From NCBI GenBank assembly GCA_037441705.1, contig JBBIRR010000045.1:1-29102 (forward strand): a DNA stretch of 29,102 nucleotides, in the 5' to 3' direction. Under the pieces are notes generated by a model that saw only the letters and a program-made list of their open reading frames with translations, did no database searches and was not told where the DNA came from. Below, in pieces: positions 1-28,759 of this stretch. Origin of the DNA: Ignavibacteriales bacterium (GTDB lineage Bacteria > Bacteroidota > Ignavibacteria > UBA10030 > UBA6906). Position 1 is the first letter of the stretch, and each line of letters opens with the position of its first letter. The position numbers were made by a program, and so were the translations under genes.

Positions 1-1
1 C

Positions 2-103
2 CCAGCGCGGATGTTTGGTGCTGAGGACGTAGCTGTACTGCACGTCGCGCTGTTCAGCGTAGTCCTTGGTGCTGATGTGTACCGAAAGCGGATGCAGGCT
101 CAC
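2..103 (-). CDS. Possible 5' end of a gene running off the left edge (MSLHPLSVHISTKDYAEQRDVQYSYVLSTKHPRW...)
   Basis: GTG at 103-101 overlaps the TGA of the upstream gene (GTGA coupling); the frame is open to the window edge; no family recognised. Confidence 0.35.
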   Translation of the reverse strand, partial: MSLHPLSVHISTKDYAEQRDVQYSYVLSTKHPRW

Positions 104-1254
104 TTCCAGACCTCCGTAACTTTCTTGGTAATCCGGACGTTGCGCTTGGCCAGTTCGTCAATCATCAGTTTGCCGGGCACGCACAGTTCGGGCACGATGA
201 CGCCGCGCTCGGTGATGATGCCGTGCGCCAGCATTTGCGCCACAATGGATGTCGGAAATGCCGTCGTTCTCATCATGGCAGTCATCTTTGTAGCATCATC
301 ATAATAATCGATGAACTCATACACAAGCGTTTTCTCAGCGGTCTTGGTTCGCCCGCTGATGGTGGCGCGGGCCAGCACAACATCCTTGTCCCCGTAGTCA
401 AGCTTCTTCCGCAGGAGGTCGGCGAAGAACTCCCGGTTGGTCTTGACGCTTCCGCCGACCATCATCGGCTCGTTCGTGGCGAAGCCGAGATCGAGCAGCG
501 TCTTGAACTTCTCGCAGTGACCCTTGTAGCGGATGGTCTTGTAGTCGAGATTCTTCAATCTGCCGGCAAACACTTTCGTGAGGGTCGAAAGTCCGCCCGA
601 GGTGTTGAACGCCTCGAGCGTCCCGAACGGCGGCGGAAACTCGATCTCTTCCAATCCCGACATCGGATCAATCAACTTCAACTCTCCATCCTGAATCACC
701 GTTGCCTTCTCAACATACTCGTTGATGAGTCCCTCCACGGAGAAGACGATCTGGTAGTACAGCGGCGGCCGCGGGTTTTGCGGCAATCCGCCCACACGCA
801 GATGGATGGAATCGAGTTCGTCGAATTCCTTCGATCCTTCCATGGCCAGGATGTTGATGAGACCCGGCGCCAATCCGCAGTTGGGAACGATGGTGATGTT
901 TCTCTCTTTGGCAGCAGCATCGAGCGTCAGTTGTCTCTCGACGATCTCGTTGTTGCCGCCAAGGTCACACATGGAAACGCCGGCCTCGATCGCGGCCTTC
1001 GTCATGTGGTAGTTGACGGAGTAGGAGACGGCGCTGATGACGGCTCCGCACCCTTCAATGAGTTTTACCACATCCCGGTTGTTGTTGACGTCAATCCGGA
1101 CGGGTTGAACGTTGGGGCCGATGGAGGCAGCCGAGCTTTTCGCCTGCTGGATGTTGATGTCCGCCAGAATGATTTCGTCGTTGGGATTTCTCATTGCGAG
1201 GTCGTAGGCAGCCGCACTGCCCATCATACCCGCACCGATCACAGCATATTTCAT
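100..1254 (-). CDS. Saccharopine dehydrogenase-family / lysine 6-dehydrogenase-like NAD(P)-dependent oxidoreductase
   Basis: N-terminal Rossmann motif MKYAVIGAGMMG; DLGGN, NCGLAPGL, FSVEGLINEY, LEAFNTSGG, YKTIRYKGH, AMMRTTAFP. Start moved to ATG 1254, which has AAAGGT upstream. Confidence 0.88.
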   Translation of the reverse strand: MKYAVIGAGMMGSAAAYDLAMRNPNDEIILADINIQQAKSSAASIGPNVQPVRIDVNNNRDVVKLIEGCGAVISAVSYSVNYHMTKAAIEAGVSMCDLGGNNEIVERQLTLDAAAKERNITIVPNCGLAPGLINILAMEGSKEFDELDSIHLRVGGLPQNPRPPLYYQIVFSVEGLINEYVEKATVIQDGELKLIDPMSGLEEIEFPPPFGTLEAFNTSGGLSTLTKVFAGRLKNLDYKTIRYKGHCEKFKTLLDLGFATNEPMMVGGSVKTNREFFADLLRKKLDYGDKDVVLARATISGRTKTAEKTLVYEFIDYYDDATKMTAMMRTTAFPTSIVAQMLAHGIITERGVIVPELCVPGKLMIDELAKRNVRITKKVTEVWK

Positions 1255-1270
1255 GATGTACCTTTCGTGT

Positions 1271-1924
1271 TCATTTGAGAATCTCGCCGGTCTCGCTGCT
1301 CCACAAGAGCAGATCAAGCTCGTCCATCGGAATGCCGATGACCTGGGCGAAGCGTTGGAATTTTTTTTCGATAGAAAGATAACGCTTTGGCGTCAAAGTT
1401 CTTGGGAGCGAGCGAAGAACGCGATGCTTCTTCAGGTTTTTGAGAATATGTCTATCGAGAATGGCAAGGTTGCGATGCCCGATGTTGCGCAGGAAATGCG
1501 ACGCTTCCTTCCAGCCCAGGCCCTTGACGTTGCGAACGAGCCATACGCGAAGCTCGACGGCCGATGATCCGTTCGTCAGCACGCGGAGCGTCACGTCGTA
1601 CTGACGCCACAGATCCCGTATGCATTGCGCTTTCGTGTTATGAAATCGAATGTAGTGTTCGCGGCATGCAAGGACGCGAGCAAGCGATGCAGTGTCGTCC
1701 CACACCCTCTCTGCCTTCAGCCGCTCCACGGCCTTTGCCGCATGCACGGCGCTGGACTGTGGGGTGAGCAAGCAGTAGATGAGTTCGTATACATACTCTT
1801 CCGGCTTGACGGCGGCGAACTCTTCCAGCCGCGCCCGTATTGCCTCGCGGTGGCGAGCATAGCGCTCGTTTATTTCATCAACGTGTTGGTAGGAGTTCCT
1901 CATGCCCGCCCCGATCCTGATCAT
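1271..1924 (-). CDS. ogg: N-glycosylase/DNA lyase, 8-oxoguanine DNA glycosylase of Ogg2 type
   Basis: ELIYCLLTPQSSA, RFHNTKA, HhH region VKGLGWKEASHFLRNIG (catalytic Lys), AILDRH (catalytic Asp), ELDLLLW and a terminal Lys (GEILK*). ATG 1924 overlaps the mutY stop (ATGA); ATG 1903 is an alternative start. Confidence 0.88.
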   Translation of the reverse strand: MIRIGAGMRNSYQHVDEINERYARHREAIRARLEEFAAVKPEEYVYELIYCLLTPQSSAVHAAKAVERLKAERVWDDTASLARVLACREHYIRFHNTKAQCIRDLWRQYDVTLRVLTNGSSAVELRVWLVRNVKGLGWKEASHFLRNIGHRNLAILDRHILKNLKKHRVLRSLPRTLTPKRYLSIEKKFQRFAQVIGIPMDELDLLLWSSETGEILK

Positions 1925-3988: not shown

Positions 3989-5323
3989 ATGACTTCATCG
4001 GACCGAAAAAGTACGTATCGAACATACGCCATCATCGTTGGGGTGGTCGCTGCGCTGACGTTTCTCACCACGTTGTTGTTGTTCAACGTCCGCGATCGAA
4101 AAGAGGAGGCGAAAGAAGTCTCCTTTCGCCTTGCGGACCTGAGCGAAGAAACGATTGATCCGGCGATCTGGGGCAAGAACTTTCCACGGCAGTACGACGG
4201 CTACAAACGGACGGTGGATACGCTGCGTACAAAGTACGGAGGCAGCGAGGCGTTTCAGAAGCTCGATGCCGAGCCGATGTATCGCCGCATCTTTGCCGGA
4301 TACGCCTTCAGTCTGGATTACCGCGAGGAACGCGGGCACGCGTTCATGCTGCTGGATCAGGATATGACCGAGCGTGTGAAGCAGCGGCAGCAACCGGGTG
4401 CATGCTTGCACTGTCACTCCTCCGTCATCCCCGCGTATCGCACGGTCGGCAAGGGCGACGTGTTCAAAGGATTCGAACAAGTCTGCGCCATGCCCTACGC
4501 CGAAGCGCGCAAACTCGTCGAACATCCCATTGCTTGCGTGGATTGCCATGACCCGAAAACGATGGACCTGCGGGTGACACGACCCGCGTTCCTCATTGGC
4601 ATCAAAGCACTGATGAAGAAGGAAAAGGGAATTGACAACTACGATCCGAACAAGATGGCAACACGCCAGGAGATGCGCAGCTTCGTCTGCGGGCAATGTC
4701 ATGTTGAATACTACTTCAAAGGCGAGGGAAAGCTCTTGACGTATCCGTGGGCGAACGGCATCAAAGTGGAAGAGATGCTTGCGTACTACGACGAATACGG
4801 CTTCAAGGATTGGACGCATGCCGAAACCGGCGCCCCCGTCCTCAAAGCCCAGCATCCGGAGTTCGAGATGTGGAATCAGGGCATCCACGCGCGCAGCGAG
4901 GTTGCCTGCGCCGATTGCCACATGCCGTACAAACGCGACGGCGCGGTCAAAATCAGCGACCATCATGTGCGCAGTCCCATCCTCAACATCTCGCGCGCCT
5001 GCCAGACGTGTCACCCGCAGCCGGAAGAGGAGTTGAAGGCGCGTGTGGAGACGATTCAGGATCGCACACGTGCTCTGTTGACGCGTGCCGAGGAAGCGCT
5101 CGTGCAACTCTACGACGAGGTAAAGAAGGCACGCCAGCGGGGCGTATCCGAGACGGTGTTGGAAGCGGCGTTGAAGCTCCAACGGAGTGCACAGTTCCGG
5201 CTGGATTTCGTCGCAGCTGAAAACTCCATGGGCTTCCACGCACCGCAGGAATCTGCCCGCATTCTCGGCGAAGCAATTGACTACGCGCGGCAGGGCCAGC
5301 TTGCAGCTGCCACGGCGCGCTAA
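3989..5323 (+). CDS. nrfA: Ammonia-forming cytochrome c nitrite reductase NrfA (c552), CXXCH first-heme variant
   Basis: Five heme motifs CLHCH, CVDCH, CGQCHVEYYF, CADCH, CQTCH; EERGH, LKAQHPEFE, AENSMGFHAPQE. Confidence 0.95.
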   Translation: MTSSDRKSTYRTYAIIVGVVAALTFLTTLLLFNVRDRKEEAKEVSFRLADLSEETIDPAIWGKNFPRQYDGYKRTVDTLRTKYGGSEAFQKLDAEPMYRRIFAGYAFSLDYREERGHAFMLLDQDMTERVKQRQQPGACLHCHSSVIPAYRTVGKGDVFKGFEQVCAMPYAEARKLVEHPIACVDCHDPKTMDLRVTRPAFLIGIKALMKKEKGIDNYDPNKMATRQEMRSFVCGQCHVEYYFKGEGKLLTYPWANGIKVEEMLAYYDEYGFKDWTHAETGAPVLKAQHPEFEMWNQGIHARSEVACADCHMPYKRDGAVKISDHHVRSPILNISRACQTCHPQPEEELKARVETIQDRTRALLTRAEEALVQLYDEVKKARQRGVSETVLEAALKLQRSAQFRLDFVAAENSMGFHAPQESARILGEAIDYARQGQLAAATAR

Positions 5324-6777: not shown

Positions 6778-8061
6778 ATGAAGATGCTGGCTATGCTGCT
6801 GATGCTGATCGGCGCCGCGTCGGCAGCGCGCGGGCAGGTGGAAGTCAGGGGCGGCAAGGAGGATGCGCCCTTCGACGTGGATGCGATCAGCTTTGCCTCG
6901 GACTCCGCCCACATTAGCCGCCTGCACGTATTCGCTGCCATTCCGTACGAGCAACTCAGTTTTGTGAAGGAGGGAGACAACTTCGTTGCTTCCTACGAGT
7001 TTACCATCTCCATCTTCGACTCCCTGCAGGCCCTGGTCACAGAAAAGCTGTACACGACCGACGTTCGGGTGCCGACGTTCGAGCAATCGGTTTCTTCCGC
7101 CGCGTTCAGCATCGAGCGTTTGTATTTCTATCTCCCGCCGGGTCTGTATCGCATTGCGGTGATGTGCCGCGACCGCGAAAGCCGTGTCACGCGGCGTGTC
7201 ACGAAGCAGCTCACCGTTTCGGATTATTCTCATCCCGGCCTCCAGCTCAGCGACATCATGCTCGTGAGCAAGCTGACGGAAAAGGATGAGAAGCGTTTGT
7301 TTACGCCCAGCATCTCTCCCAATGTCGGCAACATTCCGCCGCCCATGCACATCTTCTTCGAGGCGTACAATGAAGGCCGCCAGGACTCGGTCGAGTTTAT
7401 CACCACCATCTTCACGGACAAGAATCAGCAATCCTTAAAGGCCGACACGCTGCTGGCGCTGGCCCCGGGGCGCAACCAGGTGTTCTTGGCGATTGATCAG
7501 AGTTCGCTGCCGATCGGCGATTACAAAATGTATGTTCAAGCCTATCCCGCCGGCAAAGTCGCCACCGCACAGCCGCTCGGCACAACTAGTCGGTCGTTCA
7601 TCGTTCGCTGGAGGGCCTTACCCAAGAGCATCAAGAACCTCGATCTTGCCATCGAACAGTTGGTCTATATTGCAAAAGAGAAAGAATTAGAGTTCATCAA
7701 ACAGGCTGAAACGCCGGAGGAGAAACAGAAACGATTCATGGAGTTCTGGAAGAAGAAAGATCCCAATCCCAACACCGCGCGCAACGAGAAGATGGAGGAA
7801 TACTACGAGCGTGTGGAGTACGCGAACAAGCACTTCAAGCACTACACTGAAGGCTGGCGTACGGATATGGGGATGATCTACATTATTTTCGGCGCGCCCA
7901 GCAACGTTGACCGTCATCCGTTTGACAGCAACGCGAAGCCGTACGAGGTGTGGTCGTATTTCGATCTGAACTACACGTTCGTGTTCGTTGACGAGACCGG
8001 CTTTGGCGACTACCGGCTCACGACGCCGATCTGGGATGTGTGGCAGCGCCCGAGGAACTGA
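6778..8061 (+). CDS. Secreted GWxTD-domain protein
   Basis: RBS AAGGAGG; signal peptide; C-terminal FWKKKDPNP..EYYERVEYAN..EGWRTDMGMIYIIFGAP..YEVWSY..FVFVD. Confidence 0.88.
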   Translation: MKMLAMLLMLIGAASAARGQVEVRGGKEDAPFDVDAISFASDSAHISRLHVFAAIPYEQLSFVKEGDNFVASYEFTISIFDSLQALVTEKLYTTDVRVPTFEQSVSSAAFSIERLYFYLPPGLYRIAVMCRDRESRVTRRVTKQLTVSDYSHPGLQLSDIMLVSKLTEKDEKRLFTPSISPNVGNIPPPMHIFFEAYNEGRQDSVEFITTIFTDKNQQSLKADTLLALAPGRNQVFLAIDQSSLPIGDYKMYVQAYPAGKVATAQPLGTTSRSFIVRWRALPKSIKNLDLAIEQLVYIAKEKELEFIKQAETPEEKQKRFMEFWKKKDPNPNTARNEKMEEYYERVEYANKHFKHYTEGWRTDMGMIYIIFGAPSNVDRHPFDSNAKPYEVWSYFDLNYTFVFVDETGFGDYRLTTPIWDVWQRPRN

Positions 8062-8080
8062 GTGTTCCTGCTCGCGCGGG

Positions 8081-8109
8081 TTGACCTTCAGACGAAGAAT
8101 CTCTATACT
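8081..8109 (+). promoter_or_regulatory. Putative sigma70-type promoter for the Omp85 gene, leaderless
   Basis: TTGACC(8081-8086)-17 nt-TATACT(8104-8109), 6 nt before ATG 8116. Confidence 0.6.
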
Positions 8110-8115
8110 TTTTCC

Positions 8116-9891
8116 ATGAACGCCGCCCGCACGAAACGGTTTCTGACAATTCTCTCCGTGCATGTTATCCTCTGGTGCTCTCCGGCACCGGCGGCAACCA
8201 TCCGCTCGATTGAAATCCGCGGCAACACGGCCTTTACCGCGCGCGAAATTCTGGCGTGGCTTTCCTCCGCGCCGCGGCTTCCCTACAACCAAACAGTAGC
8301 GGCCAACGATGTGCTGCGCGTTCGAGACGCGTACCTGCGGCAGGGCTTCCTTGCCGTCGAGGTGGGACACACCGTCGTGCCTTCCGACGACGACACCGCA
8401 CACGTCAACCTCATCTTCACCATCACCGAAGGTCAGCAGACCCTCATCGGCACGATCACGCTGCGCGGCAACACACACCTGCCCACGGAAGAGCTGCTCC
8501 GTCAGTTCGATGCCCGACCGGGTAGTGTGCCGGATGCTTCTGTTCTCGAACGAGACGTCGAGAACCTGCTGATCCGGTACGAACGTGCAGGCTATCCGTT
8601 TGCACAATGTACGGTCGAACATCTTGCCGTGCGCGCGGGGGAGGAGCATGATTCGCTGGACATCCTTCTTGCGATTGACGAAGGTCGGCAGGTCACGATT
8701 GACGAGATTCGTGTCGAAGGCAACAAAGAAACCGATCCGGCTGTAGTTGTCCGCGAGACTCGCATTGCCGAAGGCGAAGTGTTCAATCCGACAAAAATTG
8801 ATGCGATCAAAGGGCGCTTGATGCGGCTCAATATCTTCTCGGATGTCTCGGAACCTGAGGTGTACGTCCGCAACGAGCGAAGCGGCTTGTTGATCAAAGT
8901 GCAGGAAGGAAGCACCAACACGTTTGACGGCGTGATCGGCTACATTCCCGGAAGAACCGCGGACGAATCGGGCTACGTCACCGGACTGGTTTCCGTGTCC
9001 ATGCGGAATCTCTTCGGCACAGGTCGCAAGCTCAGTTTTCGCTGGGCGCGCGAGGATCGCTTCTCGCAGGAACTTGCCGTCCGCTACCTCGAACCGTGGG
9101 TGTTCCAGCTTCCCGCAAACATCGGCGGCGGATTCCTTCAACGTCAGCAAGATTCTTCGTACGTCCGTCGTGTTCTTGACCTGAAAGCCGAGCTGATGAT
9201 CTCGGAAGAACTCTCTGTTGCGGGAGTGTTCAACTCGGAAAGCGTTATTCCTTCGGCAAGCGACACGCTCTTTCGCCGCGTGTTTCAAAGCTCTATCGTT
9301 TCGTTCGGCGGCGAACTGGTGTACGACACGCGGGACGATCCGTACAGTCCGACCTCGGGTGCGCGGTACCGCACGGATTATCAGTACGGCAGGAAGCGCT
9401 TCAGCAAAGTGCCGGCTTCTCTTGCCGCACAAATTCCTGCACGTGTGTCCGTCCAGCGGTTTACATTCGATCTCGATTTCTATCTTTCGACCTTCACGCG
9501 GCAGGTGCTTGCCGTTGGCGTCCACGGACGTGAATTGCAGAGCGGGCATCCGGAAGAAGGAGAGATGTTCCGCTTCGGCGGCAGTCGCTCGCTACGCGGC
9601 TTTCGGGAGAACCAGTTTCTCGGCGCGCGCATCGGGTGGACGAACACCGAGTATCGCTTCCTGCTCGCGCGGCGTTCCTACTTCTTCGGGTTTCTTGATG
9701 CGGGGTATTACCTCCGCCCCGCCGACGATGTACGCGGCATCCCGAAGTCGGATGCGTTCAAGTACGGCTACGGCATCGGCATGCAGCTGGAAACAGGGTT
9801 GGGCGTGTTGGGGGTGAGCTTTGCCCTCGGCAGCGATACGCCTTCGTTCAGCAGCGGCACGGTTCATTTTGGATTGATCAATGAATTCTGA
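8116..9891 (+). CDS. Omp85/BamA-TamA family outer-membrane protein with about three POTRA domains
   Basis: Signal peptide; POTRA-like IRSIEIRGN, IGTITLRGN and IDEIRVEGN; barrel motifs YDTRDDPYSPTSG, FGGSRSLRGF, GYGIGMQLETGLG; C-terminal Phe. Start set at ATG 8116. Confidence 0.88.
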   Translation: MNAARTKRFLTILSVHVILWCSPAPAATIRSIEIRGNTAFTAREILAWLSSAPRLPYNQTVAANDVLRVRDAYLRQGFLAVEVGHTVVPSDDDTAHVNLIFTITEGQQTLIGTITLRGNTHLPTEELLRQFDARPGSVPDASVLERDVENLLIRYERAGYPFAQCTVEHLAVRAGEEHDSLDILLAIDEGRQVTIDEIRVEGNKETDPAVVVRETRIAEGEVFNPTKIDAIKGRLMRLNIFSDVSEPEVYVRNERSGLLIKVQEGSTNTFDGVIGYIPGRTADESGYVTGLVSVSMRNLFGTGRKLSFRWAREDRFSQELAVRYLEPWVFQLPANIGGGFLQRQQDSSYVRRVLDLKAELMISEELSVAGVFNSESVIPSASDTLFRRVFQSSIVSFGGELVYDTRDDPYSPTSGARYRTDYQYGRKRFSKVPASLAAQIPARVSVQRFTFDLDFYLSTFTRQVLAVGVHGRELQSGHPEEGEMFRFGGSRSLRGFRENQFLGARIGWTNTEYRFLLARRSYFFGFLDAGYYLRPADDVRGIPKSDAFKYGYGIGMQLETGLGVLGVSFALGSDTPSFSSGTVHFGLINEF

Positions 9892-18980: not shown

Positions 18981-19263
18981 CCCTCCTGCTCACGTCTTTG
19001 CTAGGCATTTGTTGTGACGATTATTGAATTGCTTGAGGAGTTTGCAGTACACCGCCTGCTCTCGTCTGCAAGCGCCGACGGCATCGGCAGGAGGGAATGA
19101 TGCATGCAAACAGTCGAAGTCGCAATACGCAGGAAGCGGAGTCCGGTGCGGACGAGATTTGGTTGGGCGACGCTGCCGCGGCATAGAGTTCTCTTACCTA
19201 ATTTGAAAATAATGGTGGAAATGATTGTGACGAAGGAAATCCCGCCCTCGTCTCTGGGAAATA

Positions 19264-19292
19264 TTGACAAAAGCTGATTTATTTTGTAGAGT
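19264..19292 (+). promoter_or_regulatory. Putative sigma70-type promoter for the three-gene operon
   Basis: Consensus TTGACA(19264-19269)-17 nt-TAGAGT(19287-19292) in an AT-rich patch. Confidence 0.55.
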
Positions 19293-19601
19293 ATAACGGC
19301 TTCACGACTGTTCTTTTCGCATCTTCAACACACCTCCAGCGGGGGAATGCATGACTTTTCGTTCTGATAGAGTCAGTCCGCCCGGCGATGTCTGTTTCGG
19401 ATCTGCCCCCCCACTCTCGTGTAAACGGTCGGCCTTTCATAGAGACTTCGACTCCCCTTACCTGTTTTCCCCTCACTCACGAACATACACCTTCTCGCAT
19501 AGGCTCGCTCATGGCCGCAGCGATGGAGAACGATTGGTGTCCATGACCCTTGTGGGAAGAATGCCTTTATCTTCATCACTGTCATCAAGGAGGTCCATGA
19601 G

Positions 19602-22600
19602 ATGCGAAGCCGTCGTTCGTCGCTGTTGATGCTTCCCTTCCTTGTGTGTGTGCTGGTCGCCGCAGCGCCCGCAAACGCACAGGTGAATGCAACGCTGTTC
19701 ATTCAACCCTTCCCTCCGCCGTATCCCGGAGAGTGGGAAACCAATCCCTCCATCGGCTATCTGACGGTGACCAACTCCTCGTCGGCGCTGCTTCAGGTAG
19801 TGTTCGACATCAAGATCTCGCGTCGTGCAACGGGCACGCAGATTTTGCGCGGATCGAGCAGCGTGCAAAGCCTGCCTCCCGGCGTTCCGTCCGTGTTCAA
19901 CAACACACAGTTTCTCAATCTGAACAACGTGACGTACGATGCCTCGGTCCGTTCGCAGATCATTCGCAGCGGCAGGATTCCCGAAGGCGAGTACGTCGCT
20001 TGCGTCGACATCCGCGATGCCGCGGGAGCGTTGATCGCGCAGAATGTTTGCTCGCAGTTCTTCACCATTGTGTACCCCGATCCGCCGTTTCTTGTAAGCC
20101 CGCTCGACCGCGACACGATTCAACAGCAGTACCCGATTTTCAGCTGGACGCCCGTCACCGTTCCGCCGGCGTACACCATCAACTATCAACTCAGGATCGT
20201 CGAGGTCCTTCCGAATCAGGTTCCCGCACAGGCGCTCGCGGCAAACACGCCGCCGCATTACGAGAATCTCTCGCTTACCACCACCAGCTTCATCTATCCT
20301 GTCGAAGCGCTTGCGTTTCAAGCCGGCAAGCGTTACGCGTGGCAGGTGCAGGTGATTGATCAGAACGGCTACCCGCCAAGTACCAACAACGGGCGAAGCC
20401 AGATCTTTACGTTCGTCTACCGCGGCGGCGGCCCGCCGCCCCCTCCACCCATCACGTTGCAGGAATGTCTCCTGCTGTGGGCGCATACGCCTGAGGCGAA
20501 CAGCAGGTGGATCGAGCCGGGCACGCCGAGATTCATTCTGAACGTGCGTCCCGCGATCAACTTCTCCCAACTCCGTCAGGGCAGGCTGCGTGTGTGGCGG
20601 ATGAATGATTCGAGTGAGGCCACGTCGAGCGTGACACAACGAACGCCCACGCTGCTCTATCCTTTCAACGTCTCTGCCGCAACCCTGCAGATGACGGAAA
20701 TCGACACAAGCATGAGCCGGCTTGAAGTGAAGGTTGATACTGCGCAGCATCCCTTCCGTCCCGACTCGAACGCGTGGTATCTCTGGAAATTCGATCTCAA
20801 GTACAATCCCCTTCTCGTTCGGAGAGATACGGTGGACTGTGTACGTGACACGGTTACGAGCGAGTATTTCAAATTCAAGTATGCGCCGCGTCCCGCACTT
20901 GCAGGAGGCGAGTGCCGCGACGTGTGCAGCGTTCCCGCGCCGACGGATCAAGCACCTGCAACGTTTGCCCTCACGCAGGGAGATACACTGAAGATCGGCC
21001 GGTTCGACATGGTGCTGACGCAGGTTTCGGGAAGTCCGGCGGGCCTCACGGGAAAGGGCGAGATCAAAATCCCCCTCTTCCGTGCAAAGCTGCAGGTGAA
21101 GTTCTCGGGCATCAGAGTTAATCGTCTGAAGCAGGTGTACGATGGTGAAGTAACGGCCGAGCAGGCGCAGGACTCGCCTCTTTCGGAAGCGCAAGCCAAC
21201 GCGCTCGGCACCGCGCTGAACCTGACGCCGGAACAGATCAATGCAATTCACACGTTCAGCTCGCAGACAGCGCGGCTCGTCAGCTCGCTTCTCGGCACCA
21301 CACCGCTGACGCTTCCCATCGGTCTCGACAATGAGATTGCGGGTCAGCGCTTCATTGTCGGCATCATCGGCATGGTTTTCAAGCCGACCGCCGCGTATAT
21401 GAACATGGCAATGTCCTATCCGATCCCGGAGTGGGGTCCGGGCATCGCGGTGAGTTTGGGTGCGCGCAACATCTGCTTCTCGCCTACCGGTATCGGCGGC
21501 GATGGGAATGTTCAGCTCTACCTCCCCTCCGATATCGGCTACACCTCCGGAGAATCCTGGGGGTTCAAGTTTCTCGCCTCTGCCTCGGGCGACTCGGGTT
21601 GCTATGTTACACTCGACTGTCGCGGGTTCAAAGACCTCCGCCTGAGTGCGCAGGTCGAGTTCCCGCGTGCGTGGCTTCGCCCGTTCCCGACCGATGACGG
21701 TGTCTCGAAGGTGAAGGCTTCCTTCACGACACACATTGCGCGCGGGCGCAACTTCATTGTTGGAGCGAATCTGGATCGGTGTGAGATTGCCAGCGCGCCC
21801 GGCTTCGTGCTGGAAGTACAGGAGATGACGCTCGACTTTTCGGACGAGCAGAATCCGGTCGGCATAGTGTTTCCGCCCGAGTATGTCGGCGTGCGGGATA
21901 ATACGTGGAAAGGATTTTACATCCGGCGAGCCAGTGTGTCGCTTCCGCCGCAGTTGCGGACGTTCGGCAGCTCGCAGCCCCCGCAGATTGCCGTGCAGAA
22001 CTTGCTCATCAATCGCGGCGGGGTAACGGGAAGCTTCCGTGCCGAGAATGTCTTTATGTATCCGAACGGCAACTTCGGCGATTGGGGCGGCAGTCTCGAT
22101 ACGCTCGCAATCGAGGTTGTCAGCAGCTCGCTCCGGTCCGGCTGGATGAAGGGGAAGATCAAGATGCCGATCTCCGAAACGCCGATGCTCTACTCGGCGA
22201 CGCTCTCGCGACCCGGATCAGGCGACACCTCACGCGTGCTGCGCTACGCGTTTGTCATCACGCCGGGCGATACGTTCGATGCAAACATCTGGATGGCGCG
22301 CATCAAACTTCTTCCCACATCCAACATTACCATCAGCAACGATAACCCGCAACGGAAGCTGCAGGCCGTTGCCATCCTCAACGGCAGCGTCTCCATCGCC
22401 GGAACGATCGGCGGTGTCCCCGATGTGAAATTCCCCGGCATCGGCTTCCAGAACATGAAGCTGCAGAGTGTGCGTCCGTACTTCACGCGGGGCACGTTCA
22501 GTTTTGCCAGCCCGGAGAAGGGCGTCGCCGGGTTCCCCGTCTCCATCTCCAACATCGACATGGAGAACGCAACGCGTCAGGGGAAGGACCTCACCGGTGT

Positions 22601-24053
22601 CAAGTTCACGATCAACGTCAATCTCGCGCCCGGGTCGAACTCCATCAGCGGCGGCACGACACTCAAGCTCTGGGGTGAATTGGATTTGACCGGTCCGGGA
22701 CAGAGGTTCAAGTTCAACAGCATCGAGTTAGATTCCATCGGCGTGAACGCCGACCTCGGGCCGGTGAAGGTGCTGGGCTACTTGAAGTTCTATCGCGACG
22801 ATCCGACGTTCGGCTCCGGCTTCCGCGGCGCGGTGCGTGCCGACATCATTCAGCGCATCACCATCACCTCAACGGTTCAGTTCGGCAAGGTGAGCGGCTT
22901 CCGGTATTTCTACGTTGATGCGAAGGGCGTCTTCAGTCCGGGCATTGCGTTCGGGACAACGGGTGTCGGGTTCTACGGACTTGGTGGAGGCTTCTGGTAC
23001 AACATGCGGCGCGAGGGTCCGGCAACTCCGCCTGTTCCCACATCATCGGGCGTTGCGGGTCCGCAACCGGGCGCGACGGTTTCAGGTTTCCGTTTCGTGC
23101 CCAGCGAAGGAACGTTCGGCTTCAAAGCGATGGTTGTGCTGGGGACGTATCCGTCGTCGGTTGCGTTCAACTGTGATGTCGTTCTCGAGATCGAACTGCA
23201 GCGCACGAGCACGGGTTCTCTCTCGATGAACCGCATTACGTTCCAGGGCAACGGCTACATGATGGCGGAAGTGACCGCGCGCCAGAACGCAAAGGTGACG
23301 ATGTTCTGCGACATCACCTACAACTTTCCGCAGAGTACGCTGCACGGTGTCTTCAACGTAACAATCAACGCCACGCCGGTGACCGGCACGGGTCAGACAG
23401 TGATTCATGTCGAACCTGCAACGTGGTACATCAAGATCGGCGAACCGAATAGCCGGTTCAATCTGCGGATGACGAGCTGGCTGCAGACGCAAGCGTACTT
23501 GATGATGGGAAGGAATCTTCCCCCGCCGCCACCTCCGCCCGAACAAGTGCGCCGTGTGATCGGCAGTCCGTCTTCCAACCGCGACAGCCGGATTGCTGCG
23601 GGCAGCGGGTTCGCCTTCGGTGCGTCCATCTCGTTCAGCACGGGGCGCGTCACCTACTCCATCTTTTATGGTGAGGTGAGTGCCGGCGGCGGATTCGATA
23701 TCGCCGTGCTGAAGCAGACGCGCTGCACAGGCATTAACGGCTGGCAGGCACAAGGCCAGCTCTATGCGTGGGTCAACGCTTCGATCGGGTTGTATGTTGA
23801 TGTCGGATTCTGGACCTACAAGCCCTGCGGGCCATGGTACTGCTGGTTGTGCAGATGGTGCCGTGACCGCTACGTCGGTTATCGGGGCAATTTCGAAATC
23901 CTCGGCGTGAGCGCTGCCGCGCTGTTAGAAGCCGGCGGTCCGAATCCCCTCTGGATTAAGGGGACGATTGCAGGACGCTACAACATTCTCGGCGGCCTTG
24001 TGAGCGGTTATTGTTCATTCCAGTTCAGTAAAGGAACGGAGTGTAGAATATGA
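19602..24053 (+). CDS. 1483-aa secreted protein: TANFOR-like N-terminal domain, Ig/FN3-like domains and a long Gly-rich beta region
   Basis: RBS AAGGAGGT; signal peptide APANA|QV; PPPYP..IPEGEYVACVDIRD..PPFLVSP..FSWTP..YAWQVQ pattern recalled from Bacteroidota TANFOR-type proteins; two poly-Pro linkers. The CDS is secure; the domain name is from memory. Confidence 0.75.
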   Translation: MRSRRSSLLMLPFLVCVLVAAAPANAQVNATLFIQPFPPPYPGEWETNPSIGYLTVTNSSSALLQVVFDIKISRRATGTQILRGSSSVQSLPPGVPSVFNNTQFLNLNNVTYDASVRSQIIRSGRIPEGEYVACVDIRDAAGALIAQNVCSQFFTIVYPDPPFLVSPLDRDTIQQQYPIFSWTPVTVPPAYTINYQLRIVEVLPNQVPAQALAANTPPHYENLSLTTTSFIYPVEALAFQAGKRYAWQVQVIDQNGYPPSTNNGRSQIFTFVYRGGGPPPPPPITLQECLLLWAHTPEANSRWIEPGTPRFILNVRPAINFSQLRQGRLRVWRMNDSSEATSSVTQRTPTLLYPFNVSAATLQMTEIDTSMSRLEVKVDTAQHPFRPDSNAWYLWKFDLKYNPLLVRRDTVDCVRDTVTSEYFKFKYAPRPALAGGECRDVCSVPAPTDQAPATFALTQGDTLKIGRFDMVLTQVSGSPAGLTGKGEIKIPLFRAKLQVKFSGIRVNRLKQVYDGEVTAEQAQDSPLSEAQANALGTALNLTPEQINAIHTFSSQTARLVSSLLGTTPLTLPIGLDNEIAGQRFIVGIIGMVFKPTAAYMNMAMSYPIPEWGPGIAVSLGARNICFSPTGIGGDGNVQLYLPSDIGYTSGESWGFKFLASASGDSGCYVTLDCRGFKDLRLSAQVEFPRAWLRPFPTDDGVSKVKASFTTHIARGRNFIVGANLDRCEIASAPGFVLEVQEMTLDFSDEQNPVGIVFPPEYVGVRDNTWKGFYIRRASVSLPPQLRTFGSSQPPQIAVQNLLINRGGVTGSFRAENVFMYPNGNFGDWGGSLDTLAIEVVSSSLRSGWMKGKIKMPISETPMLYSATLSRPGSGDTSRVLRYAFVITPGDTFDANIWMARIKLLPTSNITISNDNPQRKLQAVAILNGSVSIAGTIGGVPDVKFPGIGFQNMKLQSVRPYFTRGTFSFASPEKGVAGFPVSISNIDMENATRQGKDLTGVKFTINVNLAPGSNSISGGTTLKLWGELDLTGPGQRFKFNSIELDSIGVNADLGPVKVLGYLKFYRDDPTFGSGFRGAVRADIIQRITITSTVQFGKVSGFRYFYVDAKGVFSPGIAFGTTGVGFYGLGGGFWYNMRREGPATPPVPTSSGVAGPQPGATVSGFRFVPSEGTFGFKAMVVLGTYPSSVAFNCDVVLEIELQRTSTGSLSMNRITFQGNGYMMAEVTARQNAKVTMFCDITYNFPQSTLHGVFNVTINATPVTGTGQTVIHVEPATWYIKIGEPNSRFNLRMTSWLQTQAYLMMGRNLPPPPPPPEQVRRVIGSPSSNRDSRIAAGSGFAFGASISFSTGRVTYSIFYGEVSAGGGFDIAVLKQTRCTGINGWQAQGQLYAWVNASIGLYVDVGFWTYKPCGPWYCWLCRWCRDRYVGYRGNFEILGVSAAALLEAGGPNPLWIKGTIAGRYNILGGLVSGYCSFQFSKGTECRI

Positions 24054-26158
24054 GAACGCGGCTGTTCTTCTTTTCCGTCTTTGCGCTCCCGACGATCATC
24101 GCTGCGCAGCAGCGTGATACGCTGAATACTTTTGAGCTGGGCGGCGCCATACGCGATCCCGGCTTCGCGCAGATCAAGGTGATTGCGCGAGCAAGCAACG
24201 ATTCCGTTGTGCTGCGTTGGGCGCCGACAACACCCCACGGCTGGTATGTCGCCAACAGAACAGGCTACGTGATCGAACGGCGCAGCGGAACGGGACCGTT
24301 CACACGACTGACGCCGGATACGCTTCACCCGTGGCTTCCCGATCAAATGGCTGCTGCCATCGAAGCCGATCGCAACAACCAATACCTTCCTCTTGCACTG
24401 CAAGCGGTATGGGGAGACTCAGCGTTGCTGGAATTGATTCCGAGCGGACGCGACACGCTCGGCGCTGCGGCAGAGCTGGCAACGAATTTCTACAGTCTCG
24501 CACTCTTTGCCGCCGATAACGATCCGCTTGTCGCCCATGCCTTGGGCTTACGCTACGTTGACCGAACCGTTCGGCGAGGGGAACGATATACGTATCGCAT
24601 TTCTCTTCTTGAACGTCGAGACTACCGTATTGACCCCGGCGAAGTGACTGTGGATGTTCGGCCCGACGTCGTCGGACCGCCGCCGGTCAATCTCACGGCT
24701 CGCGGTCTCGACAGGCGTATCGAGTTGCGGTGGGAAGGACAACGCCAGAATGAGTACACGGGATACAACGTGTATCGTTCGGAAGATAATGGCCGCACGT
24801 ACCGGAAGCTGAATCCTCTCTCCATCGCGCTTGTTGTCAGCCGCGAGGCGAATCAAATCGGCATCGGGGTGTTCACGGATTCGACCGTCATCAACTACAG
24901 GCGGTATCGTTATCAGGTACGCGGGATCAACGCGTTCGGTGAGCTTGGTGCGGCTGGGGAGGTCGAGGCAATGGCTCGCGATCTCACGCCGCCCGTTCCG
25001 CCGCTGGTGAAGAATCCCGAACAGATCGGCGCGACGCGTATTCGTTTGACGTGGGAGATGCTGGAGCTTGATCCCGACCTCGCGGGTTTCGTCGTTTCGC
25101 GCAGCGCATTCTCCGACAGCAACTTCCGCCCGCTAACGCCGCGGCCTCTGCCCAAGACGGCGCGCAGTTACACCGACGAAGCCGCTTCGGACAACGAGCC
25201 GTACTATCTTGTTGCTTCCGTAGATACGGCCGGCAATGTCTCGCCTTCGCTGCCGCTCTACGGCTTCCTGATTGATACCATGCCGCCCGCCGTGCCGAAA
25301 GGTTTGACGGGGATGATTGATACCAACGGCGTCGTCCGCTTGCGGTGGAGGAGAAACACCGAGCGGAACATTCTGGGGTACCGCGTGCTACGCGCAAACG
25401 CGCTCGACCACGAGTTCACGCAGATTGCCAATCAGGTATGGAGGGACACGCTCTTCGTTGACACGGTCGAGGTCAATACACTCACGCGCTTCGTCTATTA
25501 CAGGATCGCCGCCGTGAACAATCGGTACAACCATTCGGAGATGACGCCGCCGTTGGGGCTGCGCCGTCCCGACCGAGTGCCGCCGGAAGCGCCTGTGTTC
25601 AGCGATGTGCGTGTCAGCGATTCGTCTGTTACACTCCGGTGGGTGCCGAGCACCAGCGAGGACGTAAAGTCGCATCTTCTCTATCGTCGCATGCAAGGGG
25701 AGACACGCTGGACGCTGCTCGCGACGCTCGCCCGAACGGAGGGAACGTACACCGACAAGGCGGTGAAGCAGAACATCATGTATGAATACCAGATCGAGGC
25801 TCTGGACAGCACGGGGCTGCGCGCCATGGCGCTGCTGGCGGTACAGGCGCGCCCCTACGATGTGGGAGTTCGATCGGCACCATCGGCGCTGCGGGCAACA
25901 TACGATGAGGCGCAGCGACGCGTGCTGCTTTCGTGGTTCTACATTCCGAAGAAAGAAGAACGATTCTACTACGTCGTGTATCGTTCGGCGCCGAACGCCT
26001 CCCTCACGCAGTACAAATCCTTTGCATCTCAACAGCCGGCCTTCACCGATACCGACCTCCTCGGCGCCGGAGTGTATGCCTACGCGGTGAAAGTGATTAC
26101 CGAATCGGGAGCGGAGTCGCCGCTGAGTGAGAGAGTCCAGGTCACGGTCGCCAGGTGA
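24050..26158 (+). CDS. Secreted fibronectin type III repeat protein (about 6-7 domains)
   Basis: ATGA overlap with the upstream gene; signal peptide; repeated LRW..GYNVYRS..YRYQV patterns with DLTPP, DTMPP and DRVPP linkers. Confidence 0.85.
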   Translation: MRTRLFFFSVFALPTIIAAQQRDTLNTFELGGAIRDPGFAQIKVIARASNDSVVLRWAPTTPHGWYVANRTGYVIERRSGTGPFTRLTPDTLHPWLPDQMAAAIEADRNNQYLPLALQAVWGDSALLELIPSGRDTLGAAAELATNFYSLALFAADNDPLVAHALGLRYVDRTVRRGERYTYRISLLERRDYRIDPGEVTVDVRPDVVGPPPVNLTARGLDRRIELRWEGQRQNEYTGYNVYRSEDNGRTYRKLNPLSIALVVSREANQIGIGVFTDSTVINYRRYRYQVRGINAFGELGAAGEVEAMARDLTPPVPPLVKNPEQIGATRIRLTWEMLELDPDLAGFVVSRSAFSDSNFRPLTPRPLPKTARSYTDEAASDNEPYYLVASVDTAGNVSPSLPLYGFLIDTMPPAVPKGLTGMIDTNGVVRLRWRRNTERNILGYRVLRANALDHEFTQIANQVWRDTLFVDTVEVNTLTRFVYYRIAAVNNRYNHSEMTPPLGLRRPDRVPPEAPVFSDVRVSDSSVTLRWVPSTSEDVKSHLLYRRMQGETRWTLLATLARTEGTYTDKAVKQNIMYEYQIEALDSTGLRAMALLAVQARPYDVGVRSAPSALRATYDEAQRRVLLSWFYIPKKEERFYYVVYRSAPNASLTQYKSFASQQPAFTDTDLLGAGVYAYAVKVITESGAESPLSERVQVTVAR

Positions 26159-26165
26159 CGACATC

Positions 26166-27866
26166 ATGATCACACCAAAGACCTCGATGATCCATTGGAG
26201 ATGGTGGGGAACGGCCACTGCGTTGATTGCCGTGCTCATGTCGTCGGCACACGCGCAGGTTCCCGGATTGCCCGGCACACGCACCGTTGCTTTTTCCGGA
26301 GAGATGGGAACGTACGGCGAATGGTACAGCATCCGGGGACAGAACAAGCGGCGACCTTCGTCAACAGGCAGATTGTTCCTGCGTCCAACCCTGACGCTGT
26401 TCGACGCGCTTTCGCTGAACTTCGACTTTCTCCTTTCGACCGAAGGGAGCGGCGCGCGCCAGAACATCAACCAATTTGGATTGCATCCCACGTGGTCCTG
26501 GGGCAAAGCGCATCTCGGCGATTTCTCCGACTCGTATTCCGACTACACTTTCAATGGCATTCTTGTGCGCGGCGGGGCTGTGAGTATCAATCCGGGACTG
26601 TTGCGATTTTCCGCTCTTGGGGGATTTACAAAGCGAGCGGTGCCGGGCGGCGCAAGTGACGGAGCATTCGATCGGTATCTCTACGGCGGGAAGCTCGGCA
26701 TCGGCACGGAAGCAGGCGGGTACGTTGATCTCATGTTCCTTCGCGTGCGTGACGAGATCTCTTCACTGCCACCGCTTTCTTCAGGACAGATGCCGATTGA
26801 TACACTCAATCCGTCCGCCAATCCGCTGCGCGGCTACGAAGTGACGCCGCAAGAGAACCTGATCGGCGGCATTCTGAGCAACCTCAAGTTCTTCGACAAC
26901 CGCCTTCAGTGGAAGACCGAAGCGTCGGTCAGCCTGTTTACACGCGATATGCGTGTTGCGTCCGATACGACGATAAAACTGCCGGGTTTTGTGAAGGATC
27001 TGTATCGAGCAAACATCACTTCGAATGTAGATGTGGCGGTCACTTCGGAAGTTCAGGTCGAGATTGACAATGTCTCGGTGCGAGGCGGGTACAAATGGAT
27101 CGGTCCGGGCTACAATTCGCTCGGCGTTGCGTCGCTGTTCAATGACCAGCAGGAGTTTCTCCTCGCTCCCTCATTTCGCATTGCGGATTGGTCGGTATCG
27201 TTGACGTACACACGGCAGAACGACAACCTTCTGGACCAAAAGACCTTTACTCTGGTGCGTAACCTCTACGGCGCGAATGTTACGTTCCGGCCTGCATCCA
27301 TCTGGACGTCGAATGTCCTTGCCAACTACGTCGTGATGAGTAACGATGCAACGAACGACACCATGCGCGTTGCCTTCAGCAATCTCATCTTGGGCACGAA
27401 CCAGATCTTCACGCTGCCGCCGGGAAGCGCGGTGCAGGCGGTGACGTTCAGCTATATCTTCCAACACTCCGGCGACGATGTGCCGTTGCGTTCAGGCTCG
27501 CGCTCGACCGGCCATTCGGCAACGCTGGGGGCGGCGATTCCGGTCGGCACGTCGCTCACGCTCTCGCCATCCATATCCGTTGTGACCTACAAGGTCGGTT
27601 CGTTCGGTAGCCAGACCACGCAGACCTACAGCCTTGCGGCGTCCTACCGCGCTCTCGAGAACAAACTCACCACAACGCTCTCCTCTGCGGCATCGTTCAT
27701 CCGCTCAAGCACCACCCTCCGCAACAGCCTTGCGTCCGCGTATCAAATCGCTCCGATGACGAGCATCGGGATAAGTGTGGGGATGACGACATTTCGCGGC
27801 GGCACGTTCCCTTCGCGCAACTTCGACGAGTTGATCGGCACGCTGAATGTGACGCAGAGGTTTTAG
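26166..27866 (+). CDS. Putative outer-membrane beta-barrel protein
   Basis: Signal peptide SAHA|QV; amphipathic beta strands throughout; GYKWIGPGYNSLG; BAM-type C-terminus TLNVTQRF*. Start 26166 or 26187. Confidence 0.75.
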   Translation: MITPKTSMIHWRWWGTATALIAVLMSSAHAQVPGLPGTRTVAFSGEMGTYGEWYSIRGQNKRRPSSTGRLFLRPTLTLFDALSLNFDFLLSTEGSGARQNINQFGLHPTWSWGKAHLGDFSDSYSDYTFNGILVRGGAVSINPGLLRFSALGGFTKRAVPGGASDGAFDRYLYGGKLGIGTEAGGYVDLMFLRVRDEISSLPPLSSGQMPIDTLNPSANPLRGYEVTPQENLIGGILSNLKFFDNRLQWKTEASVSLFTRDMRVASDTTIKLPGFVKDLYRANITSNVDVAVTSEVQVEIDNVSVRGGYKWIGPGYNSLGVASLFNDQQEFLLAPSFRIADWSVSLTYTRQNDNLLDQKTFTLVRNLYGANVTFRPASIWTSNVLANYVVMSNDATNDTMRVAFSNLILGTNQIFTLPPGSAVQAVTFSYIFQHSGDDVPLRSGSRSTGHSATLGAAIPVGTSLTLSPSISVVTYKVGSFGSQTTQTYSLAASYRALENKLTTTLSSAASFIRSSTTLRNSLASAYQIAPMTSIGISVGMTTFRGGTFPSRNFDELIGTLNVTQRF

Positions 27867-27986
27867 GCGGTGGGGTTGAGGTTCAGAGGCAGGATTCACG
27901 ATTCAGGATTTGGGATCACAGCGCTTCCCTTCGTCATGCTGAGCGTTGCTTTCCAAACGCGAAGCATCCAGAACCCGAGAACCTGC

Positions 27987-28249: not shown

Positions 28250-28340
28250 CGGTTCGGGTTCGGGGTTTGAGATTTGAGGTTCGAGGTTCAGGGTTCAGGA
28301 TGCACGGGATGCAGGATGCAAGATGCAGGATTCAGGTTGA
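28250..28340 (+). repeat. Degenerate 7-bp tandem repeat tract
   Basis: GTTCGGG GTTTGAG ATTTGAG GTTCGAG GTTCAGG GTTCAGG ... GGATGCA GGATGCA AGATGCA GGATTCA. Confidence 0.8.
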
Positions 28341-28759
28341 TTCTCGTTCTGGATTCTTCGCCTCTGAGAAGCGAGGCTCAGAATGACGGAGGGATCGGCC
28401 GTCGCGGCTTACGCGCCATACGCACAGCGCCGTGACGGAAGGGCGGGGTTTAGACGACTCCGTCATGCTGAGCGCTGCTGTCCAAGCGCGGTTTGAGGTT
28501 TGGGGTTTGAGGTTCAAGGTTGAGGTCGCGTAGCGGGTGCGGTTCTTCGACCGGGATGCATCCAGCACAGGGAAGCAAAAGGGCAACTGCACCACCGAAC
28601 GCCCCTCGGGCTTTGCCTTCAATGCCCACACCCCTCGGACAGCCTGTGGCGTTGGCGGTCTTATGCCCGGCATGCAACGTGTTGATGTGACGACAACCCC
28701 TTGCGTTTTTGAATCGAACGTGGTAGCTTGCCGCAGAGCACCAAGAGAGAAATAAACGC

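Follow-up and report, generated by a model that had tools for sequence, protein, structure and literature searches.

A predicted plug-in-barrel pairing as candidate anchor or exporter of a giant protein in an Ignavibacteriales bacterium

Among the wide barrels of described outer-membrane systems, LptD has 26 strands and a lumen filled by a separate protein, LptE, and MtrB, likewise of 26 strands and without a plug of its own, sheathes part of a partner that reaches the surface. Ushers are wide barrels of 24 strands, and two-partner secretion has a 16-strand Omp85 barrel with POTRA domains, TpsB, and a TPS domain that is a β-helix. The case considered here is a three-gene locus on a 29,102-nucleotide (nt) contig of an Ignavibacteriales bacterium (the whole of this stretch is termed the window), whose genes, all on the + strand, encode an exported giant (protein A), a protein with five fibronectin type III (Fn3) repeats (protein B) and a predicted barrel (protein C). 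The explanation to which we give slightly better than even credence is that the N-terminal part of the giant, its head, is lodged as a plug in the barrel, which would anchor or export the giant for surface display on the outer membrane independently of the type IX secretion system (T9SS). No characterised system in Pfam, NCBIfam, the sequences of the PDB or the literature was found to map onto the locus, in line with the view of a first-pass annotation that it corresponds to no named type of secretion. By analogy, a module of barrel and head would work most like the plug-and-barrel arrangements of LptDE and MtrAB combined with the logic of two-partner secretion, while being a member of none of these.

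That gene C encodes a β-barrel, as had been proposed from its letters, is now backed by structure prediction. An AlphaFold2 model built from 36 aligned relatives (predicted local distance difference test, pLDDT, 82.9; predicted template modelling score, pTM, 0.69) has 26 strands in residues 41-565, short turns alternating with long loops, and an empty lumen with neither a plug nor a periplasmic domain; the protein is free of Cys and ends in ...VTQRF. MtrB, known from the MtrB-MtrA(-MtrC) structure 6r2q, is the best structural match both in Foldseek (6r2q_B, E 3.1e-10, TMq 0.52) and in VIA (Z 21.4, root-mean-square deviation (rmsd) 5.2 Å, 462 aligned), the next VIA rows being OpdQ (Z 16.3) and PapC (Z 15.3). 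The product presumably resides in the outer membrane.

The likeness to MtrB/PioB is of fold only: protein C has no Pfam or NCBIfam match at E ≤ 0.1, and the profile of its family, when run against PDB sequences, retrieved no MtrB but a single irrelevant match (E 0.46). The partner is different too, being a head of β-sandwich domains here and a decahaem cytochrome in the case of MtrA, and the operon has no cytochrome gene. Unlike LptD, the barrel is without an N-terminal β-jellyroll domain, and neither A nor C has an LptD/OstA match. TonB-dependent transporters have 22 strands and a plug, where protein C has 26 strands, no plug and no match to Plug or TonB_dep_Rec. In autotransporters (type Va) and inverse autotransporters (type Ve) a 12-strand barrel is in the same chain as its passenger, whereas the barrel here is a separate protein. 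DUF6029 (PF19494), an ESM Atlas lead (0.93) that stood among unnamed clusters, was not retained as an identity for the barrel, there being no Pfam match at the threshold just given. The family itself is large, with 2,701 representative clusters at E ≤ 0.001, 2,023 at ≤ 1e-10 and 887 at ≤ 1e-30. Three of the six long barrel representatives scanned (P0233, P0252 and P0256) have N-terminal TPR repeats before the barrel, and the combination of TPR and barrel occurs in known outer-membrane exporters. In P0320, which is among the 150 best barrel representatives and the only such case in them, head and barrel are joined in a single chain of 865 amino acids (aa), though this may be a gene-calling artefact.

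The first line of evidence for a partnership is genomic. Profiles for the barrel and for the conserved all-β core that makes up most of the giant were run on 301 sampled genomes from across the phylum; the barrel family is present in 54 and the core in 26 (25 strong matches and one weak and partial). Barrel-positive genomes without the core, of which there are 29, permit the association with the head to be seen by itself. With a head profile made from the first ~280 residues of the window's giant and of 29 others, 20 such core-less barrel loci were scanned (156 open reading frames (ORFs) of at least 150 aa). In 19 of the 20 a head-bearing ORF directly adjoins the barrel gene on the same strand, with E values from 1e-31 to 1e-107, and in the twentieth the neighbouring giant extends past the stretch analysed. 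These 19 were the only head matches among the 156 ORFs, all of them barrel neighbours, and there was no core match. Behind the 19 heads the bodies are unrelated and from 636 to more than 3,200 residues long. The window, where the head match has an E value of 9e-112, has what defines the module, namely a barrel-family gene near a gene that starts with the head, here two genes upstream. Thus the invariant pair is barrel and head; the core and the Fn3 protein constitute a second sub-module, fused to the head in the window. The notion of a minimal three-part machine does not hold strictly.

A second pair is present in the genome to which the window belongs. On contig C14 a divergent head-only protein of 382 aa (24331-25476, - strand, E 1.4e-17) is ~0.7 kb upstream of an 831-aa barrel-like ORF (21174-23666, - strand, E 1.8e-12). 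These are the only other such matches in that genome, and no core or Fn3 partner of theirs was detected in it.

One Flavobacteriia genome (G239) shows a different distribution of the parts: its giant has no head, and a head-bearing protein of 1,551 aa comes after the barrel. The same genome has three more head-bearing proteins of 1,036-1,255 aa (L082:6078-9188, L083:9202-12969 and L084:8694-11867). Behind every one of them comes a small ORF (150-164 aa), and one of the three has a C-terminal match to an XOO_2897-like deaminase (E 3.5e-08). The L082 cluster also contains an Fn3 protein, SprB-repeat proteins, a barrel and a headless core giant. What the G239 head proteins have in common with the window's giant is head and Fn3-like domain, without the core, and by sequence the three resemble TANFOR polymorphic toxins accompanied by immunity genes.

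The second line of evidence is a predicted complex. With residues 38-566 of the barrel and 27-292 of the giant, three runs gave ipSAE values of 0.91, 0.92 and 0.91; among three controls the highest value was 0.00. Of 157 solved complexes 116 attain this ipSAE mark, as against 2 of 215 mismatched pairs, a rough guide given the custom alignments used here. The runs have at least 88% of their contacts in common, of ~300, and the pLDDT of the partner is at least 82. The predicted interface draws on loops L1-L10 and, in ~20 of the 26 strands, on alternate residues; since only an object in the lumen can touch all of these, the head would be inside the barrel. The modelling thus supports binding of the head by the barrel. 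The direction in which the rest of the giant leaves is the weakest step. Most strand contacts are in the outer half, the lowest-error pairs are at outer strand ends and loops L7-L9, and head residues 267-268, just before the hexaproline linker, are predicted to be against loop L7 (323-325). Strand parity makes L7-L9 extracellular; because the lowest-error contacts near the linker are at such loops, the body would exit on the outer side.

A scheme consistent with these observations can be put forward. All three proteins would be exported by Sec, as their leaders suggest, and C would insert into the outer membrane as a wide barrel of 26 strands with no plug of its own. The giant's first ~250 mature residues would lodge in the lumen, much as LptE does in LptD or MtrA in MtrB, with the C-terminal end of the head and the hexaproline linker near the extracellular loops. 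The Fn3-like domain and the ~1,050-residue disulfide-rich all-β core would then most likely project from the surface, held by the plug, and the five-Fn3 protein would, as far as synteny is a guide, most probably serve the core as stalk or partner. When first annotated, the barrel was cast as translocator or anchor, the Fn3 protein as scaffold and the giant as passenger. An anchoring or translocating barrel with a β-rich partner gains from the 19 of 20 pairings and from the complex score (0.91 versus 0.00), whereas the scaffold and passenger roles, like the part in adhesion or transfer then suggested, are conjectural.

Several described systems share elements of this scheme. In two-partner secretion (TpsB/TpsA, FhaC/FHA, CdiB/CdiA) a dedicated barrel likewise serves each giant exoprotein, and a conserved N-terminal module is recognised while the body and C-terminal toxins vary; however, protein C, with its 26 strands, has no POTRA or Omp85 match, and the head consists of β-sandwich domains. 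The plug-and-barrel logic is that of LptD-LptE, and LptD chains are among the structural matches to a curved sheet in the giant considered below. Yet what fills the barrel here would be the N-terminal part of a giant of 1,483 aa instead of a small lipoprotein, and nothing indicates a role in lipopolysaccharide transport. Ushers (FimD, PapC) also have a wide barrel, that of PapC being the third VIA match mentioned above, and their plug is replaced by folded Ig-like subunits. Inverse autotransporters (intimin/invasin) resemble the proposed topology, being anchored in the membrane at the N-terminal end and exposing an Ig-rich C-terminal passenger. None of the three proteins matches an usher, chaperone, pilin or intimin family, and anchor and barrel are here two polypeptides.

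That the three families should co-occur was checked in 81 sequences, the window and the loci of 80 relatives, taken with 10-kb flanks and clustered by ORF. They do: the core is in 80 of the 81, core plus Fn3 protein in 64 and a barrel ORF in 37, and in the phylum sample the barrel family is present in each of the 25 genomes with a strong core match. For 24 of them barrel and core are on the same contig and strand within ~26 kb, the remaining core being at a contig edge. In the window's own genus core and barrel are present in three of the five genomes sampled (G000 included). The Fn3 gene directly adjoins the core gene in 48 of the 64 loci with both, and is at most three ORFs away in the other 16; on sequence evidence, the Fn3 protein appears to travel with the core and not with the barrel. 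Three gene orders occur, A-B-C as in the window, A-C-B and C-A-B. In Flavobacteriia A and B are followed by several SprB-repeat paralogues, and the barrel is 13-26 kb downstream, outside the 10-kb flanks. SprB-type repeat paralogues follow the Fn3 gene in 29 loci (e.g. L039:16563-22658 and L085/L086), as three to five genes in tandem (~400 aa) or fused into proteins of up to 2,186 aa. The Fn3 array of protein B is itself secure, five repeats being delimited by iterated search, and Pfam fn3 (PF00041), the sole family matched, is above its gathering score (44.2 bits, cut-off 25).

The giant, whose length of 1,483 aa had been given correctly, belongs to no curated family, with sub-threshold matches only in Pfam and NCBIfam. 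The description of it as TANFOR-like needs qualification. The TANFOR profile TIGR02542 gives 14.1 bits (cut-off 67; E = 0.033), aligning residues 98-156 with profile positions 87-144, well below what the curated rule demands. However, when the first 400 residues of 67 related giants are compared with the profile, 18 match at E ≤ 0.1 and two pass the cut-off (106.9 and 89.8 bits). Because related giants reach or pass the cut-off, the likeness is a matter of homology: the head is, to judge from these scores, a divergent TANFOR homologue that is not a member by the curated rule. Since the profile finds only three of the 301 phylum genomes at E ≤ 1e-5, none over the cut-off, it is too narrow to trace the head. 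With TANFOR toxins the giant therefore has in common a homologous head, part of a graded series that rises to 106.9 bits in relatives, but it is below the cut-off and has no toxin end and no immunity gene.

Beyond the head, the Fn3-like domain of A matches insulin receptor FnIII domains (Z 7.8, rmsd 3.6 Å, 106 aligned), and a model of residues 285-1483 (pLDDT 82.2, pTM 0.46) is all-β with hairpins of up to 28 residues. The mature giant has 19 Cys, several of them conserved, as against none in the barrel or the Fn3 protein; such a number is more in keeping with an extracytoplasmic protein held by disulfide bonds than with a membrane barrel. The core profile had no match among PDB sequences at E ≤ 1, and ESM Atlas returned nothing named for the giant. 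Its relatives, all 'hypothetical', are from Ignavibacteria, Kapabacteria and metagenome-assembled Bacteroidota genomes, with Flavobacterium, Tenacibaculum, Chitinophaga and Reichenbachiella among cultured carriers, and there are at least 554 loci of giant or core relatives in a collection of 185,579 species genomes. A YD-shell or cocoon was considered for the giant and rejected, the Foldseek rows concerned (teneurin, Tc-toxin shells, LptD) having a TM of at most 0.21 and an rmsd of 27-60 Å.

After the core, 60 of 80 relatives have a C-terminal extension of 400-800 aa. Variable C-termini, mentioned at first reading for clusters of this kind, do not apply to the window's copy, which ends at the core; the 60 extensions are one conserved family (12 of 36 match the Ig-like Big_5). 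A profile of the 60 had no match at E ≤ 1e-3 anywhere in the genome of the window. The idea that the extension (~485-650 aa) is a fused barrel was dropped, the hhalign probability against the barrel profile being only 0.09%.

A number of considerations weigh against surface display by a plugged barrel. Display would require a body of ~1,200 residues to pass the membrane by some route. The case is one of sequences and models, with location and binding predicted; the complex score is the confidence of a model fed with custom alignments, and orientation and surface exposure depend on a handful of predicted contacts and on strand parity. Seven of the 37 loci holding a barrel have no head ORF, two being cut at a contig end and five having a head-less giant beside the barrel. 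Because of these five the barrel may have other partners, or its head may be supplied from elsewhere. The window's giant, lacking the extension of most relatives, may be a reduced form. Lastly, the giant could be associated with membrane or lipid instead of being a free passenger, because in the model its last ~500 residues are arranged in an antiparallel sheet, wide and curved, that resembles both the walls of large barrels and a lipid-wrapping belt. The VIA matches of this sheet include OpdQ (Z 13.5, rmsd 12.4 Å), MtrB (Z 12.3, rmsd 7.6 Å), the ApoB100 lipid belt (Z 12.4, rmsd 8.9 Å, 266 aligned), open LptD (Z 10.5, rmsd 5.7 Å, 269 aligned) and SprA (Z 9.5, rmsd 5.8 Å).

The main rival is a tether or conduit facing the periplasm, in which the head enters the barrel from that side and the body, with the Fn3 rod, is a strut spanning the envelope or a bridge for lipid or hydrophobic cargo comparable to LptD/LptA or to sheets of TamB/AsmA type. 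Besides the open LptD and ApoB100 matches, Foldseek lists LptD chains at a probability of 1.00, albeit with a TM no higher than 0.21; no transfer of 1,200 residues across a membrane is called for, and Fn3 rods could conceivably span the periplasm. Nevertheless, we regard it as unlikely. The predicted contact of head residues 267-268 with loop L7, and the bias of strand contacts to the outer half, point the other way, and the window's giant has no AsmA, TamB or LptD family match at E ≤ 0.1. Also pertinent is that relatives with the same head bear nuclease or deaminase toxin ends, for which action in the producer's own periplasm is argued to be unlikely in a study of TANFOR proteins (Jana, Salomon, Bosis 2020; PMC7073777).

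A role for T9SS deserves attention on general grounds. In that study TANFOR proteins are defined as polymorphic toxins, SprB, Fn3 (COG3401), PKD and C-terminal domain (CTD, Por_Secre_tail) proteins are enriched around their genes, and T9SS is present in more than 95% of TANFOR genomes; the export route is left open there, with T9SS suggested, and the sections on TANFOR neighbourhoods and export mention no barrel (PMC7073777). In the window's genome, for its part, SprA is matched at 880.6 bits and Por_Secre_tail 137 times. The giant might then be T9SS cargo, with the barrel a mere accessory, e.g. a PorV-like shuttle or an attachment site. This seems distinctly improbable. T9SS is so common in the phylum that its co-presence says little; none of the 137 matches is on the window's contig; and A, B and C match neither the type A (TIGR04183) nor the type B (TIGR04131) CTD at E ≤ 0.1. 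The five Flavobacterium SprB-repeat paralogues scanned likewise had no CTD match. A dedicated, linked barrel with the head predicted in its lumen is the simpler route.

Somewhat lower in our estimation is the absence of any complex, i.e. a porin-like channel, an adhesin and an Fn3 protein acting independently from a shared operon. The link is indeed one of genomes and models, and large barrels can be channels by themselves. However, an unplugged 26-strand barrel would be an open hole, LptD and MtrB both being filled, and linkage that is preserved in each of the three gene orders and across several classes within the phylum, the near-invariable adjacency of head and barrel and the gap between complex score and controls are all hard to accommodate. 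Least probable of all is that the giant is itself a TANFOR-class polymorphic toxin and the locus its delivery cassette: notwithstanding the TANFOR-related head, and the G239 head proteins with toxin ends and small ORFs, one of them clustered with Fn3, barrel and core giant, the window's giant stops precisely where the core does and matches no toxin domain in Pfam or NCBIfam, the next gene is that for the Fn3 protein with no small immunity-like gene downstream, the extensions of the 60 relatives are a single family instead of polymorphic, and the toxins share head and Fn3-like domain, not core, with the giant.

With a plug-in-barrel anchor or exporter thus retained as the preferred explanation, and since this copy has no toxin domain, the product of the window is probably a surface structure, adhesin-like or a contact apparatus, and not a weapon. 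The wider relevance is in the barrel. As the same family is beside head proteins with differing bodies, including TANFOR toxins elsewhere, it is the best candidate for a T9SS-independent outer-membrane anchor or exporter of head-bearing proteins. A stronger proposition, to which we would assign somewhat less than an even chance, is that the 26-strand family is the dedicated translocon and anchor of an unrecognised, T9SS-independent two-step pathway of secretion or display in Bacteroidota-like bacteria, the TANFOR-type head being both targeting and plug domain, and that it serves giants and TANFOR toxins alike.

If so, the barrel module may be the missing outer-membrane route of TANFOR proteins and toxins; a family that is beside the head and predicted to hold it is at any rate a concrete candidate for this role and one open to experiment. 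Among the TANFOR genes in the first 15 rows of Supplemental Data 1 of PMC7073777, many have as their next gene one for an unannotated protein of ~750-800 aa. Long variants of the barrel, at 817-818 aa, are of about this size. Searches of the literature on TANFOR/TIGR02542, DUF6029, Bacteroidota toxin secretion and 26-stranded barrels brought up no description of a barrel, barrel-head or barrel-giant-Fn3 system. From the sequences surveyed the module appears widespread in Bacteroidota-like bacteria, with neither a published description nor a curated barrel model found for it, and, because it recurs so widely, the window's locus can be taken as one minimal, toxin-free member. If the proposal is true, a plug-in-barrel system of two-partner type joins the short list of ways in which Bacteroidota display proteins at the surface. 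The window's copy, with its head fused to the core, no toxin and no C-terminal extension, is compact and therefore a convenient minimal case for structural work.

Features of the three-gene locus (positions in the window; residues of the encoded protein)
Feature	Position (nt)	Residues	Strand	Description
Promoter candidate	19264-19292		+	σ70-like, TTGACA-17-TAGAGT, ~310 nt 5′ of gene A; 10/12 consensus matches
Gene A	19602-24053		+	1,483-aa exported giant (head, Fn3-like domain, conserved all-β core)
Signal peptide of A	19602-19679	1-26	+	Sec-type, ANA/Q27
Head of A	19680-20423	27-274	+	Divergent TANFOR-like domain and second β-domain
Hexaproline linker	20433-20450	278-283	+	Between head and body; seen in sequence
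Fn3/Ig-like domain of A	20463-20888	288-429	+	
Conserved core of A	20913-24050	438-1483	+	All-β, long hairpins; profile match
Second polyproline run, in core of A	23520-23540		+	Seen in sequence
Gene B	24050-26158		+	702-aa protein: leader, N-terminal domain, five Fn3 repeats
Leader of B		1-19	+	Sec-type, IAA/Q20
N-terminal domain of B		20-205	+	Iterated search
Fn3 repeat 1 of B	24680-24958	211-303	+	Iterated search
Fn3 repeat 2 of B	24989-25249	314-400	+	Iterated search
Fn3 repeat 3 of B	25283-25552	412-501	+	Iterated search
Fn3 repeat 4 of B	25577-25837	510-596	+	Iterated search
Fn3 repeat 5 of B	25889-26140	614-697	+	Iterated search
Gene C	26166-27866		+	566-aa outer-membrane barrel (predicted fold)
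Leader of C		1-30	+	Sec-type, AHA/Q31

The layout of the locus is for the most part as the first-pass annotation had it. The three genes are tightly coupled, with an ATGA overlap at 24050-24053 in which the ATG of B is over the TGA of A (...AGAAT ATGA GAACG), and a 7-nt gap at 26159-26165 between B and C (TGA-cgacatc-ATG), as ORFs and junction sequence confirm; for gene C a longer alternative GTG frame starts at 26127 (579 aa). The flanks are non-coding as far as short ORFs only, none with a Pfam or other family match, are present in the 621 nt upstream of gene A (18981-19601) and, together with repeats, in the 1.2 kb downstream of gene C. The promoter claimed for the genes is more doubtful: a σ70-like site does exist upstream, but it is a weak candidate by consensus only, the upstream gap having one such site versus a mean of 0.4 in shuffles. 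A scan for terminators revealed no terminator-like site directly after 27866. The N-termini of all three proteins, read by eye, have the basic n-region, hydrophobic core and AxA-type site expected of the Sec signal peptides ascribed to them. The listed absence of T9SS CTD, POTRA, TonB plug and autotransporter signatures also stands, as no Pfam or NCBIfam model for these, or for TonB-dependent transporters, matches A, B or C at E ≤ 0.1.

The first mature residue is Gln in all three proteins, Q27, Q20 and Q31, with codons at 19680, 24107 and 26256, respectively. Q27 of A and Q31 of C are kept in at least 90% of the sequences in their family alignments. Gln starts fit the 'Q-rule' (N-terminal pyroglutamate) reported for Bacteroidetes signal peptidase I substrates.

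In the non-coding DNA 3′ of gene C there are two copies of an element with GTCATGCTGAGCG (27933-27975 and 28462-28500), a motif present 28 times in the genome versus ~0.1 expected, and also 7-nt tandem arrays of GGTTCGA, CAGGATG and GGTTTGA (28251-28336 and 28490-28526). Farther upstream in the window, at 3989-5323, is a gene for cytochrome c552 (an NrfA-type nitrite reductase, E 1.3e-136), which has no link to the MtrB-like barrel and hints at a nitrite-ammonifying lifestyle. A gene for a GWxTD-domain protein (6778-8061) is followed without a gap by one for an Omp85 protein with three POTRA domains (8062-9891), and the two are possibly a further coupled pair of the outer membrane, with no relation to the three-gene module.

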